Source of the DNA: an uncultured Acidimicrobiales bacterium
Lineage (GTDB): Bacteria; Actinomycetota; Acidimicrobiia; Acidimicrobiales; DATKAS01
Reading direction: 5' to 3'
DNA length: 64,000 nucleotides
NCBI GenBank assembly: GCA_963759645.1
Contig: CAVXAI010000013.1
Coordinates: 149,571 to 213,570, forward strand
Position numbers and translations under genes: made by a program. The notes beneath the pieces were generated by a model, which saw only the letters and a list, made by a program, of their open reading frames with translations, had not been told where the DNA came from and ran no database searches. Of this stretch, positions 23,525 to 29,614 are shown in pieces; position 1 is the first letter of the stretch; every line of letters begins with the position of its first letter.

Positions 23525-23885
23525 GCTAGCTCTTGGTCGTCACCGAGATGTCGTAGAAGGCCGTCGCGTTGTTTACGGGGTGGTAGTCACGGGTGCCGAT
23601 CGCCAGGTCGCCGTTGGGCCTCAAGCTGCCGGAGTCGCGAGCGCTGCGCTTAGTTCTGCAGGCATCGTCGCGACCTTCCGCCGTAGCTGTGCCCCACCAG
23701 GATCACGTCCTTGCCCAGTGCGGACGCATGACGCAACAGTTCTTGTGGCGCACATCAGAGCGCGGGAACGGCCGCGCGGCGCTCGTCGACAAACGGCGCG
23801 ACCGCCGAGTGTGCAATCCCGGAAGCAATCCGGTACCAGAACCCGAAATCCACCGGCCGGAACCCTTGCAGCACTACGGGCTTTT
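23525..23885 (-). pseudogene. N-terminal remnant of an alpha/beta hydrolase (nucleophile elbow present, in-frame TGA, frameshifts)
   Basis: The remnant reads KPVVLQGFRPVDFGFWYRIASGIAHSAVAPFVDERRAAVPAL*CAPQELLRHASALGKDVILVGHSYGG and then loses frame. It abuts tRNA-fragment copy a. Confidence 0.55.
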
Positions 23886-24062
23886 CGTGTCGGAGGGGGG
23901 GACTTGAACTCCCACCGGTCCTGTGATCGCCCGTAGCGCGCTTGCTCTCGGTGTCACGGTTCCGCAGGTCGCGTGGCCTTTCTCGTCGACCCCGCGTGGG
24001 CCGCCGATGGCGGCTGTCCACGGTTGTCTGTGACCAGGGTTGTGACCGCGCTTCGACGCACG
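23850..24062 (-). repeat. tRNA-Leu 3'-end-containing repeat, copy a (core 23888-23914)
   Basis: The core tgtcggagggggggacttgaactccca matches the tRNA T-arm and acceptor 3' half. The left flank is ccggaaccc..ttgcagc. About 150 nt of the right flank is homologous to copy b. Confidence 0.75.
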
Positions 24063-24303
24063 ATGACCAGATCTCGGGACCCATCCCGCCGCCCGGCATC
24101 GCCTGCCGACACCCGTGCGTCGCGGGCTCGTCGAAACGGATGAAACCGGGACGGGAGAGGGGTGTACTCGTCAACTTCTAAGCGGCTACCGCGGCCCCCA
24201 CCCGAGACCATCAACGCCTACCTCGATGAGGCCTACGAACTCGGCAAGGGCTTCAGCGTGCCGCGAGCACCGCGAGCATCGCTCGCCACCAACTAAGCCG
24301 GCC

Positions 24304-24713
24304 ATGAGGCGGCTACCGATCGTCTGGCACCGCCTTGTGTGAGCGGAGGCCGAACGTGCGACCGCTGCGCAGCAACCCAACACGAAGTCGAACACGCTTT
24401 GCACACCCTCGAAGAGGCGCTCCGGCCACTCGAACCACAATTTGAGATCCGCGAACTCGACGAGGTCTCGTTCGAGCAGGGCCCGGCTGCCTCGAACCGC
24501 ATTTGGATCGCCGGTAAGCCGGTCGAAGAGTGGCTCGAAGGCACCGTCGGAAGCGGCCGCTGCTGCTCACTGTGCGGCGACTCGGAGTGCCGCACCGTCG
24601 AGGTCCGGGGCACCACCTTCGACGCCATACCAGAGCGACTCATCCTGCAGGCGTCGCTGCTCGCCATCTCAAGGCTCCTCGACACGCCACCGGCCTCGAG
24701 CGCCTGTGCGTGA
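24304..24713 (+). CDS. DUF2703-family CxxC protein; frameshift near 24340
   Basis: The protein reads MRRLPIVWHRLV | SGGRTCDRCAATQHEVEHALHTLEEALRPL...SNRIWIAGKPVEEWLEGTVGSGRCCSLCGDSECRTVEVRGTTFDAIPERLILQASLLA. This matches the recalled DUF2703 pattern (W.RLV..G.TC.RC ... SNRIW..G.P.E.W ... CC..CG...CRT.EV.G..Y..IP). Confidence 0.7.
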
Positions 24714-24757
24714 GACTCGAAACCGGCAGCGAGAATGTCAGGTCAAACGTTCAGAGC

Positions 24758-24970
24758 GACCCGGAACCACTTCCGTTCCAGCAATCGGACATATCTCGGT
24801 GTCGGAGGGGGGCTTGAACCCCACCGGTCCTGTTCTTGTCTGCGCTGGCTTGGCCTTCGGTGTCACTGGTTCTTCAGGTCGCGGGCCATCGCCTTGACTC
24901 CGACCAAGCCGCCGTTGTCGCTTGTCCGCGGCAGTCTGTGACCATCGAGGTGACCGGCGGTGGTGCACGC
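24758..24970 (-). repeat. tRNA-Leu 3'-end-containing repeat, copy b (core 24800-24823)
   Basis: The core is tgtcggaggggggcttgaacccca. The flanks are homologous to copy a on both sides, at an estimated 65-70 percent identity by eye. Confidence 0.75.
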
Positions 24971-25283
24971 TTGAACTCGGGCGCGTCTGCGTGCCACCTG
25001 GTGATCGGGGTTCGCTGCGGCAAGAAACGACAGCGACACTGATTTGGACGGGTTGTCATGTGATGAGGTCGAGGAGGCGTTGCAGTGCTGAGCGGGCGTC
25101 CAGTCGTGTTCTTGGTGTGCTCCGAGAGGTCCGAGCAGCTTGTCGCGATCCCGATTCGGGAGCCGCCACGCAAATTGGGGCGTGGGCGGCGCCCGTTCGC
25201 GCAGCTCCGTGCGTCTGACTTTCCCGAGAACTCGAGCACACACCGGCTGAGCGAGACGGCGCCGGACCACGTCTTGGCGACCG

Positions 25284-28538: not shown

Positions 28539-28609
28539 ACGGCGCAGTTGCCCAGATCGATTTCCTCATGCACACTTGCACATCTCCAAAGCACCGGAAG
28601 GGGTGTCCG

Positions 28610-28978
28610 ATGCCAGCAGCCGCAGTTGCTTTCAAACTTGGGTCGGTGCTGACGCCAGAGAACCTCGCACAGTTGGGTGGGGACGCGAGTTTGATGTCGC
28701 GCCTCGCCACCGAAGGAAGCTTGGTCGAGCTGGCCCAGGAGTTCGGGGAGATCACCGACCCGGACGAGGTCGAATACTTCAGTTCAATCCCGCGCGCAAT
28801 CCAAGAGTCCATCCGCGTCGCGATCCGGGCGGCGATCCAGGATGGCAAGGGCGTGCAGATCCAGTTCTCGCCCGCATACGACTTTGGGCTCCGCATTTGG
28901 GACTATGGGCAGGCGATCAGCGTGCACTTGGAAGGGCCCTACACCGAAGCCACGATGCCCACGCGACTCTCGCAGTAA
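28610..28978 (+). CDS. Hypothetical 122-aa protein, divergent from the cyclase-STAND gene
   Basis: The ATG at 28610 follows GGAAGGGG. The protein reads MPAAAVAFKLGSVLTPENLAQLGGDASLMSRLATEGSLVELAQEFGEITDPDEVEYFSSIPRAIQESIRVAIRAAIQDGKGVQIQFSPAYDFGLRIWDYGQAISVHLEGPY. I recognise no family. Confidence 0.5.
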   Translation: MPAAAVAFKLGSVLTPENLAQLGGDASLMSRLATEGSLVELAQEFGEITDPDEVEYFSSIPRAIQESIRVAIRAAIQDGKGVQIQFSPAYDFGLRIWDYGQAISVHLEGPYTEATMPTRLSQ

Positions 28979-29117
28979 CCCGTTGCGCGACTGGGGCCGA
29001 CGACCACTCGGTCCCGCCGCGGCCAGGGCTACACCCAAATCCCAGCACGACGCGCCGCCCGACGGCCGTAGTCCGCCGAGCGCGACATCTCCGCTCACAG
29101 GATTCAGCGCAGAACCC

Positions 29118-29200
29118 CACCACCGGAACCCCTTGCAGCCGTAGGCGATCGTGGTGTCGGAGGGGGACTTGAACTCCCACGAGGCCCGTTATCGCCCTGA
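29118..29200 (-). repeat. tRNA-Leu 3'-end-containing repeat, copy c (core 29155-29179, followed by CCA in the tRNA sense)
   Basis: The core is tgtcggagggggacttgaactccca. The left flank caccggaacccc ttgcagcc and about 20 nt of the right flank are homologous to copy a. Confidence 0.75.
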
Positions 29201-29491
29201 CGCACGGCCGTACAACCCGAACCGGTTCTCGCGGGAGTTCGACCGGGCGCTCGCCCGGCACCCCGATCTCGCCCGCATCCGCCTGCACGACCTTCGGCAC
29301 ACCTGGGCCACGCTGGCACTCCAGGCCGGCGTCCCGGTGAAGATCGTTAGTGAGCGTCTCGGTCACTCGACGACATCGATAACGAGCGACACGTATTCAC
29401 ACGTGACACCACGACGAGAGCCGACGCCGCCGAGCGAGTCGCGAGCCTCATCTTCCCGGCGTCGCGACCAACTGGTGACCGGGGACCCTGA
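29181..29491 (+). pseudogene. Tyrosine recombinase (phage-integrase family), C-terminal catalytic about 100 aa only
   Basis: The fragment reads RPYNPNRFSREFDRALARHPDLARIRLHDLRHTWATLALQAGVPVKIVSERLGHSTTSITSDTYSHV (HxxR, LGH, catalytic Y). After a frameshift it continues ADAAERVASLIFPASRP. The N-terminal two-thirds are absent, and homology starts right at repeat copy c. Confidence 0.8.
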
Positions 29492-29530
29492 GACAAAGGG
29501 CAAGCACTGGGGTTGAACTGCGCAAACTTC

Positions 29531-29614
29531 GTGTCGGAGGGGGGACTTGAACCCCCATGCCCTTGCGGGCACTAGGCCCTCAACCTAGCGCGTCTGCCAA
29601 TTCCGCCACTCCGA
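29531..29614 (-). tRNA. tRNA-Leu (anticodon GAG), class II with a long variable arm, CCA not encoded
   Basis: The sequence folds by hand as GTCGGAG TG GCGG AATTGGCAG ACGC G CTAGG TTGAGGG CCTAG TGCCCGCAAGGGCAT GGGGG TTCAAGT CCCCC CTCCGAC A. All four stems and the variable arm pair. Confidence 0.95.

Follow-up and report, generated by a model that had tools for sequence, protein, structure and literature searches.

Decayed Integrative Elements Probably Stacked at a tRNA-Leu(GAG) Gene of an Uncultured Acidimicrobiales Bacterium

Organization of the Locus

The window, i.e., the complete 64-kb stretch of DNA that was analyzed, contains a single tRNA gene according to both ARAGORN and Rfam: the intact tRNA-Leu(GAG) which the preliminary description had placed on the minus strand (Table 1). 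Its sequence is the same in every sister contig, its last 27 nt (29531-29557) constitute the current att core, and its 3' trailer, read directly, is CGA. On the side of the tRNA body lies secG, part of the conserved chromosomal flank; the identical SecG protein is found in 20 contigs with differing content after the tRNA. The intact tRNA gene forms one border of the island, and the inserted DNA lies on its 3' side.

Table 1. Features of the variable block and its tRNA-proximal border (window positions; E0 to E3 denote the proposed elements, E3 being the newest)
Feature	Position	Strand	Evidence or remark
Older variable segment (putative E0 or older), missing from L003	20489-23819		Gap in L003 homology
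Abhydrolase gene remnant	20554-20883		Within 20489-23819
DUF2652 gene	20965-22071	-	Precomputed Pfam annotation of the corresponding L001/L002 genes
Cupin-cyclase gene	22192-23049	-	Pfam
Left flank of copy a, putative P arm of older element E0	23820-23886		Homology to L003/L010 integrase tail and spacer
Copy a	23887-24062	-	tRNA 3' fragment 23887-23914, then CGA, plus ~150-170 bp P'-arm-like right flank
DUF2703 gene, sole cargo of E1 (23915-24798)	24339-24713	+	Pfam PF10865, E 5e-28
Copy b	24799-24970	-	tRNA 3' fragment 24799-24823, then CCG, plus ~150-170 bp right flank
Nucleotide cyclase-AAA_16 (STAND-type)-TPR gene, E2 cargo	25284-28538	-	Pfam
122-aa ORF, E2 cargo, divergent partner of the cyclase gene	28610-28978	+	No Pfam/PADLOC match
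Left flank of copy c, P-arm-like putative remnant of E2	29112-29153		Contains CCGGAACCCCTTGCAGC; repeat family D3
Copy c	29154-29197	-	tRNA 3' fragment 29154-29180 plus ~18-nt P' arm stub common to copy a
Beheaded tyrosine-recombinase pseudogene	29193-29491	+	PF00589; tblastn
Spacer, putative P arm of newest element E3	29492-29530		Integrase stop codon to tRNA 3' end, direct read
tRNA-Leu(GAG), intact, resident	29531/2-29615	-	ARAGORN; Rfam RF00005, 52.8 bits
secG, conserved chromosomal flank, tRNA-body side	29650-29880	-	Pfam SecG

A good part of the cargo of the island consists of cyclase and STAND-type signalling genes. Pfam agrees with the DUF2703 and cyclase-STAND-TPR genes recognized at first inspection, and the ORF then listed as unknown proved to be a 122-aa protein that has homologues, always adjoining a cyclase-AAA_16-TPR gene, but no family match in Pfam or PADLOC. 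In the window, the cyclase-AAA_16-TPR gene is split into three frames owing to 1-nt assembly errors, with indels at 26638 and ~26090 relative to L007 and L002; in short-read contigs the ORF is intact (1079 aa). The decay attributed to the region is apparent in the integrase fragment but does not extend to this gene. Regarding the size of the insertion, the initial estimate of 5.6 kb was too small: homology with the sister strain L003 ends at 29528 and resumes only at 20488, giving a variable block of ~9 kb (20489-29530). Its leftmost segment also holds a 111-aa ORF with no Pfam match.

Displaced Copies of the tRNA 3' End

The 13-mer GTGTCGGAGGGGG has exactly four matches in the 64 kb, all on the plus strand, at 23887, 24799, 29154 and 29531, and none of 100 shuffles gave four matches. 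Four tRNA 3' ends on the same strand are found within 5.7 kb and none in the rest of the window, in line with the three same-strand copies originally reported. These copies, denoted a, b and c from left to right, are direct repeats of 25-27 nt spanning the T arm and the 3' acceptor strand. They differ from the tRNA in the length of the G-run, and copies a and c also carry ACTCCCA for ACCCCCA, which produces an A:C mismatch in the T stem; the cores of copies b and c are degenerate. The 3' trailers, read directly, are CCA after c, CCG after b and CGA after a. The trailers first noted for c and b are thereby reproduced, as is the lack of an encoded CCA in the resident tRNA; copy c does encode it. 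Independent short-read contigs (L021-L027) match the cores exactly, including the G-run lengths, and the copies are therefore not sequencing noise. Furthermore, the short-read contigs L007 and L008 show no difference from the window over 28483-29640, and in short-read assemblies of the same population the tRNA, the copies and the integrase fragment are identical base for base.

The right flank of copy b, which ends in GTGACCAnnnnnGTGACC, is homologous to that of copy a, with 72-75% identity (75% over 164 bp, z 20), and copy c (repeat family D1) is 86% identical to copy a. Between samples, identity over the whole array reaches 99% or more, well above that of these two right flanks, and the copies had therefore already diverged when they arrived. 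Copies a and c look like hybrid att sites rather than duplicates of the resident gene, as suggested by the T-stem mismatch in both and by the CCA encoded in c; the T-stem variant sits on the side contributed by the attP of an arriving element. The mismatch, the encoded CCA and the diverged a/b flanks support the earlier proposal that the copies were imported. Direct, closely spaced copies with similar flanks would also result if a segment with the tRNA 3' end and the adjoining flank had been duplicated locally by replication slippage or unequal crossing-over, with no mobile element involved. This origin is nevertheless highly improbable and largely refuted: flank-only comparison finds the copy flanks unrelated to those of the resident tRNA, the resident gene lacks both the variant of a and c and the CCA of c, the copies diverge from one another by 25-28% against at most ~1% between samples, sister strains lack the copies, and an integrase fragment is present.

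That the repeated units are tRNA-like or other structured RNA genes is barely credible, even though they include a T arm together with a 3' acceptor strand, and 170 bp are common to a and b. The 5' acceptor strand is missing, the folding energies do not improve on those of shuffles (z -1.4 and +0.6), and the predicted folds differ from each other. The preliminary description had itself named membership in a conserved transcribed RNA family as refuting evidence; no Rfam match was obtained even at E values up to 1, nor was a stable shared fold. In a 3.37-Mb sister contig, moreover, the pattern of P arm plus core has one match, located at the tRNA itself. Decayed integrase C-termini were also considered for the right flanks of a and b, on account of weak tblastn matches at 24934-25119, and were discarded, the nucleotide Smith-Waterman scores being not significant against shuffles (z -1.0 and 1.8). 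In JGI metagenomes, the conserved block of these flanks matched only an IS66-like ORF, at about the level expected by chance.

Left Flanks and Arms

A left-flank motif had been described as common to all three copies. This applies to a and c, the only left flanks in which CCGGAACC(C)CTTGCAGC occurs exactly and which align with z 3.7 in a flank-only comparison; the left flank of copy b bears a weak resemblance to them in another register (flank-only z 2.8). The origin of the motif becomes apparent from the sister strains. Positions 23914-23820 of the window match L003 at 10324-10415 (BLAST E 2.6e-10), and the left flank of copy a by itself aligns with the L003/L010 spacer with z 9.5, a value that none of 500 shuffles equaled. 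In both strains this homologue lies between the integrase stop codon and tRNA-Leu, and an integrase remnant is present in L003 at 10457-10543. The motif is not, as initially thought, a separate signature of the copies; judged from this homology, it is most plausibly the P arm of an element and not chromosomal flank. As an element arm, it would make each copy the junction of two elements, so that copy a would not be the outer border and an older element would lie to its left.

The spacer beside the resident tRNA has the same layout as in L011 and L012, where the integrase stops 60-90 bp from the tRNA, and its sequence is weakly similar to L012 (z 3.5) and L011 (z 2.3). The arms carry short direct repeats (GTGACCAnnnnGTGACC), as is also the case beside the intact integrases of L011, L012 and L015, and may represent putative integrase-binding arms.

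The Integrase Fragment

A C-terminal tyrosine-recombinase pseudogene of 100 aa, converging on the tRNA 3' end, takes up the 377 bp that separate copy c from the tRNA. The ORF at 29151-29516 matches positions 101-170 of the 172 in the Pfam Phage_integrase profile (PF00589, E 7.5e-12), corroborating the assignment made at first reading, and tblastn with P0025/P0056 covers residues 117-188. The last ~100 aa are kept, with HxLRH, LGH and Y; the box I Arg and any N-terminal domain are missing, and a -1 frameshift near 29410-29420 is evident when the fragment is read against the L011 sequence. These features identify it as an apparent remnant rather than a functional gene. It is the same in the short-read contigs L007 and L008, and the truncation is real, unlike the frameshifts of the cyclase gene. 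Integrase homology does not begin exactly at copy c, as had been stated, but approximately there: it starts at 29193-29199, 13-19 nt past the end of the copy, and the deletion junction between the two would lie at ~29193-29197.

In SSV1-type archaeal integration, attP lies inside the integrase gene, which is therefore split upon integration. The proximity of the fragment to a tRNA-derived core recalls this arrangement, in which the 100 aa would be a normal Int(C) half, and the best 120 homologues are all short (91-212 aa). The likelihood of such an arrangement is nonetheless close to nil. Left of copy c, the reading frame is interrupted by a stop and shows no homology to integrases; tblastx with the integrase regions of L011, L012 and L016 recovers only the known fragment from the island, leaving no N-terminal half beside the tRNA, at the opposite junction or elsewhere in the island. 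The short homologues are gene calls split by frameshifts or truncated by contig ends, many of them starting at a conserved (V/L)FCHPDG, and in L011 and L012 the N-terminal domains lie directly upstream in a conventional int-attP layout. Finally, the stop codon of the fragment faces the tRNA, as in conventional elements. A recurrent deletion at a pseudo-att site inside int was likewise rejected, as L015 has a truncated integrase with no second core and the truncation points of the homologues vary.

Sister Strains and Related Loci

Strains with identical SecG carry different content at this locus. In L003-L006 and L010 (SecG 100% identical), the DNA is unrelated to the window from the first base after the tRNA to 20488, and copies a, b and c are missing; the sister strains differ by replacement of the whole block. 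The contigs that contain any part of the array all share one arrangement, and no intermediate with fewer units occurs among them. The preliminary description had proposed to look for relatives in which the tRNA directly adjoins the flank left of 23850; no such clean empty site emerged among the relatives compared, nor was a tRNA fragment found to mark the far border near 20488.

Related integrases do occur at the same target. L011, an Acidimicrobiia MAG, and L012 encode them in the same orientation beside tRNA-Leu(GAG), with SAM-like or arm-binding N-terminal domains just upstream; L012 also holds HTH_17 (Xis-like) and primase-like genes, and the far att repeat of its element is absent within 10 kb. 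The L012 integrase gene contains frameshifts, that of L011 is interrupted by the end of the contig, and a further integrase, of 384 aa, is found in the P0046 context. At the equivalent locus in a JGI contig, a truncated integrase precedes a small element whose integrase is complete. A search for integrases with the same core and flanks had been suggested at first inspection; no intact relative of E1 or E2 with the same arms was found in the GTDB representatives, IMG/VR or JGI metagenomes scanned. The P-arm-plus-core pattern gave no match in IMG/VR and, among GTDB species representatives, only the L003 genome.

Serial Integration at tRNA-Leu(GAG)

The region is probably a tandem-accretion scar, in which decayed integrative elements are stacked at tRNA-Leu(GAG). 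The repeats of the tRNA-Leu(GAG) end, the integrase fragment, the strain polymorphism, the occurrence of related integrases beside this tRNA in other contigs, and the homology between the left flank of copy a and the L003/L010 spacer are direct observations; the polymorphism, the L011/L012 integrases and the hybrid-looking att sites support the serial integration and decay already proposed from the first inspection. The order of events and the deletions would be as follows. Tyrosine integrases specific for the tRNA-Leu(GAG) 3' end (T arm plus acceptor strand) would have catalyzed successive integrations, each of which would restore the tRNA with the 3' end brought in by the element and displace the former 3' end, along with the element integrated before, to a position farther from the gene. 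The cores at 23887, 24799, 29154 and 29531 delimit E1, E2 and E3, copy a presumably being the junction of E0 and E1, copy b that of E1 and E2, and copy c that of E2 and E3. The newest element, E3, may have collapsed to 377 bp by an internal deletion that fused ~18 nt from its far arm to the integrase gene at codon ~290; what remains would be an inactive C-terminal fragment directed toward the tRNA. E2 would retain its arms and a two-gene module (cyclase-AAA_16-TPR and 122-aa ORF), E1 its arms and the DUF2703 gene, and E0 some cargo along with its spacer and the terminal ~30 nt of an integrase gene. No integrase homology was found inside E1 or E2, each of which is bounded by cores with flanking arms. 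Since no backbone pseudogenes are recognizable in these two units, we infer rather than observe their descent from full-size elements. As the array holds no functional integrase, it would be immobile in the absence of a helper acting in trans.

The accretion may possibly, although this is distinctly less likely, have taken place elsewhere, the composite island with its internal att junctions having entered the lineage in one step, either in a single integration by the integrase of which a remnant abuts the tRNA or by homologous recombination in the conserved secG/opp and His_Phos flanks. The single arrangement of all array-bearing contigs and the whole-block replacement in sister strains are consistent with such an entry, and accreted composites are known to transfer (PMC5704250). 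There is no direct evidence against it, and it changes the place of the serial integrations, not the nature of the structure.

It is improbable, by comparison, that E1 and E2 are live integrase-less cassettes (CIME-like) moved in trans by a tRNA-Leu-specific integrase, which would amount to an integron-like gene-capture array on a tRNA gene in Acidimicrobiales. In both units, one cargo module is set between a short left arm and a homologous right arm of ~170 bp, and backbone remnants were not detected; the GTGACCAnnnnGTGACC repeats resemble those beside intact integrases, and the E2 module turns up again in L017 and L018, two chromosomal contexts that are unrelated, with 84-85% identity at the nucleotide level. 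These module copies, however, lack att-like features: no att-like repeats surround the one in L017, and core-like sequence is absent in both. Moreover, there are two units only, the same arms were not seen around other cargo at a second locus or strain, the array is not polymorphic in ~20 contigs, cores b and c are degenerate, and no helper integrase is visible within the 64-kb window.

On the reading of stacked, decayed elements, the tRNA-Leu(GAG) downstream of secG would be an integration hot spot that generates strain-level variation in gene content in uncultured soil Acidimicrobiales. The locus also illustrates in detail how islands of this type can be dated and dissected by means of their att junctions. 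Accretion at a tRNA gene is a known and ordinary route of bacterial island growth, and no new mechanism is proposed here.

Comparison with Known Systems

In classical tRNA-linked islands and prophages, a lambda-type integrase lies next to attP and converges on the tRNA 3' end. The identity block consists of the T arm and the acceptor strand, the far end is recognizable by a displaced 3' fragment, and the flanks contain arm-type direct repeats. At the present locus, an integrase remnant converges on the tRNA in the same way, and the identity block, displaced 3' fragments and arm repeats are likewise present; in contrast to the classical case, the integrase has been truncated and carries a frameshift, and there is a stack of three displaced fragments.

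The array corresponds to elements accreted in tandem beside a tRNA gene and then decayed, as in remnants of the CIME (cis-mobilizable element) type and tycheposon-like islands. In the tycheposon islands of Prochlorococcus, elements lie next to tRNA genes and are separated by partial tRNA copies, and fragmented integrases and additional partial tRNAs are interpreted as traces of earlier integrations that more recent ones moved inward (bioRxiv 10.1101/2020.12.28.424599). The position beside a tRNA, the partial copies between elements and the fragmented integrase are common to both systems. The integrase lineage, host phylum and cargo differ, however, and no tycheposon replication module is present, making the two functional analogues only.

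Tandem accretion is also documented for ICESt1 and CIME at fda in Streptococcus thermophilus and for IME/CIME tandems at tRNA-Lys, where the older elements of CIME arrays have lost integrase and transfer genes and kept their att repeats (PMC5704250). As in the ICESt1/CIME arrays, the older units here have no integrase and are separated by direct repeats of the target 3' end. Unlike those arrays, the present one belongs to an uncultured Acidimicrobiales host and targets tRNA-Leu(GAG), conjugation or mobilization genes are not visible, and its newest element is a 377-bp stub.

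Junctions at the tRNA gene

The array of partial tRNA copies at tRNA-Leu(GAG) very probably arose by serial integration followed by decay, that is, by tandem accretion. The window contains exactly four occurrences of the 13-mer at the 3' end of the gene (GTGTCGGAGGGGG on the plus strand), always on the same strand, a number reached in 0 of 100 dinucleotide shuffles. Besides the gene itself, these sites mark three partial copies of 25-27 nt, each consisting of the T arm and the 3' acceptor strand and designated a (farthest from the gene), b and c (nearest), in agreement with the preliminary description. 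The trailers, read in the tRNA sense, are CCA after c and CCG after b, as first described, and CGA after the resident gene as well as after a. In copies a and c, the ACCCCCA of the tRNA is replaced by ACTCCCA, and the T stem thereby acquires an A:C mismatch. Homopolymer noise of long reads does not account for these details, since all cores (the tRNA 3' segments), with their G-run lengths, recur exactly in independent short-read contigs; positions 28483-29640 are identical in two such contigs, L007 and L008.

Local duplication of the resident gene is not supported as the origin of the copies, because it conflicts with the A:C variant, located on the side supplied by an incoming attP, with the CCA in c, and with the 25-28% divergence between copies vs at most ~1% between whole arrays of different samples. 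The same features fit diverged-attP junctions, which supports the proposal that the copies were imported. A transcribed, structured RNA family, tested as a further explanation of the repeated units, was likewise not supported.

Coordinates of the tRNA gene, its 3'-end sites, module copies and signalling cargo
Feature	Position	Strand	Remarks
tRNA-Leu(GAG)	29531/2-29615	-	sole tRNA in the 64-kb window by ARAGORN and Rfam
13-mer, copy a	23887	+	13-mer search of window
13-mer, copy b	24799	+	13-mer search of window
13-mer, copy c	29154	+	13-mer search of window
13-mer, tRNA	29531	+	13-mer search of window
E2 module copy, L017	6668-10360		unrelated neighbourhood
E2 module copy, L018	6677-10351		unrelated neighbourhood
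Signalling cargo, L003	10725-17530
Signalling cargo, L006	2110-8855
Signalling cargo, window	22192-23049, 25284-28538
Signalling cargo, L012	3719-5290

On their right flanks, a and b have ~160 bp in common at 72-75% identity (z 20); on the left, CCGGAACC(C)CTTGCAGC is common to a and c. To the left of b the resemblance is weak and in a different register, so that the motif initially assigned to all three copies is exact in a and c only. In two compared contigs (L003 and L010), a ~35-bp spacer (…GGCGCAAGGTTTCGGGCGAC…) adjoins the tRNA, beyond which a short integrase C-terminal remnant lies on the opposite strand with its stop codon toward the tRNA (tblastn). The left flank of copy a is homologous to this spacer and the last ~10 integrase codons (BLAST E 2.6e-10, core included; z 9.5 with the core left out, a score reached in 0 of 500 shuffles). 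By this homology, the motif is a piece of the element arm normally found between the integrase gene and the att core, and not chromosomal flank, which corrects the earlier reading. Consequently, each copy is a junction of two elements, with the older element's arm on the left and the younger's on the right (a, E0/E1; b, E1/E2; c, E2/E3, from oldest to newest), and E0 was once present to the left of a. Between integrase and tRNA, three related-integrase contigs (L011, L012, L015) have short direct repeats with the pattern GTGACCAnnnnGTGACC; these also occur at the outer end of the a and b right flanks, consistent with arm-type integrase sites.

In the proposed mechanism, each arriving element would recombine inside the T-loop/acceptor segment, its own copy rebuilding the tRNA while the former 3' end and the older element are pushed away. 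E3 would afterward have shrunk by internal deletion. Of E2, the arms and a two-gene module are left, and of E1, the arms and DUF2703. The original proposal of repeated integration and decay was thus right in substance and needed correction on the flank motif, island extent and cargo state. Import en bloc of a pre-assembled composite is a less likely alternative to accretion in situ; no nested intermediates, which would tell the two apart, were seen. The array structure agrees with the published description of tandem accretion with CIME-type remnants (PMC5704250). It also matches, as an analogue, that of tycheposon islands, in which elements integrated one after another at tRNA genes and left partial tRNAs and broken integrases behind. 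The array is a new example, in a little-studied lineage, of a known kind of system.

Integrase fragment and its relatives

In line with the first description, which gave 375 bp, the 377 bp from copy c to the tRNA code for nothing more of a tyrosine recombinase than its end, matching positions 101-170 of 172 in the Pfam Phage_integrase profile. Similarity to related integrases begins at 29193-29199, and the right-flank similarity of a and c stops at 29197, which would place the E3 deletion there. The fragment has a -1 frameshift near 29410-29420, and its true stop codon (29489-29491) is ~40 bp from the tRNA. The best 120 database homologues are all short, which briefly suggested an SSV-type split gene; the homologue contexts point the other way. 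In two contigs, L011 (an Acidimicrobiia MAG) and L012, the N-terminal parts (SAM-like or arm-binding) are encoded immediately upstream, split off only by frameshifts or gene-call breaks, and many of the ~100-aa calls begin at a conserved (V/L)FCHPDG. The integrase gene in both contigs converges on the tRNA-Leu(GAG) 3' end, 60-90 bp off; judging from sequence, integrases related to the fragment do appear to use this tRNA. L012 additionally carries HTH_17 (Xis-like) and primase-like genes, and in a JGI contig a truncated integrase precedes a small element whose 384-aa integrase is complete, adjoining the same ECH/opp neighbourhood as in L012.

In L015 (10001-11221), a truncated related integrase lies beside tRNA-Leu(CAG), with the conserved fhaA-pknB cluster as neighbour; inserted between integrase and GTGACCAATCCGTGACCAC repeats are a couple of small genes on the minus strand, which might be a toxin-antitoxin pair. 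L016 is a phage-like contig bearing two TerL genes as well as IS110 transposases. A tRNA-Leu 3' fragment that encodes CCA stands there by itself, 730 bp downstream from a piece of integrase gene (sites 11147-11174 and 11266-11291), with no tRNA gene within 17 kb. It is followed by two GGTAGAAAAYCCG, like the two GGTAGCAGAC beside the L003 integrase remnant, and could represent an attP or an inter-element junction.

Variable block and cargo

The window SecG protein is unchanged on 20 contigs, and the same array is present in L001, L002, L007, L008, L019 and L020-L027. Five contigs (L003, L004, L005, L006, L010) share the secG-tRNA side and differ from the window from the first bases past the tRNA. 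Homology to L003, a 3.37-Mb contig of 'uncultured Acidimicrobiales bacterium MFD00962.bin.2.274' whose block holds an FHA-cyclase and a kinase-nSTAND1-WD40 protein, returns only at 20488, adjoining a His_Phos_1 gene; the block therefore spans ~9 kb rather than the 5.6 kb initially estimated. The predicted empty site, with the tRNA joined directly to DNA left of 23850, was found in no relative examined, and no tRNA fragment remains near 20488. The 355-bp remnant of L003 is absent from L006, where the tRNA lies within 13 bp of the same cargo, which indicates piecemeal deletion of such remnants. At the far border, a ~110-codon remnant (20554-20883) of an alpha/beta-hydrolase gene complete in L006 (8882-9712) shows further deletion and rearrangement. 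Other strains carry further different sequences past the tRNA (L005, 10395-10450; L004, 10350-10400). That of L005 includes four CGGGAGT(G/A) repeats no more than 60 bp from the tRNA end, which resemble arm-type sites belonging to an unrelated element; the queries used revealed no integrase.

The E2 module (25275-28972) comprises a cyclase-AAA_16-TPR gene and a divergent 122-aa ORF of unknown function. Copies with 84-85% identity at the nucleotide level, found in L017 and L018, both Acidimicrobiales contigs, have no att-like repeats around them, and the pair is a conserved module; the L017 copy is 229 bp from tRNA-Thr(CGT). Single-base indels at 26638 and ~26090 vs L007 and L002 break the window cyclase gene into three frames. 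These are 1-nt assembly errors and not pseudogenisation, since the gene is intact (1079 aa) in short-read contigs; not all of the cargo is decayed. The layout of E1 and E2, arms plus one module, would suit integrase-less cassettes that are still mobilisable, a very improbable reading given that neither a second example of the arms (GTDB species representatives, JGI metagenomes), nor array polymorphism among ~20 contigs, nor a helper integrase in the 64-kb window was found.

Short-read contigs give the same 124-aa call for the DUF2703 gene. An ATG-initiated MRRLPIVWHRLV* in another frame just upstream (24304-24342), together with a Pfam match starting only at profile position 12, suggests that this gene may have a genuine N-terminal frameshift. 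PADLOC gave only a weak PycC-like match for the cyclase domain (E 2.7e-6). At this tRNA-Leu, the variable DNA frequently includes signalling genes of the nucleotide-cyclase and/or STAND-NTPase kinds (FHA-cyclase, kinase-nSTAND1-WD40, cupin-cyclase, cyclase-AAA_16-TPR, nSTAND1); the genes of L004 are of other kinds.
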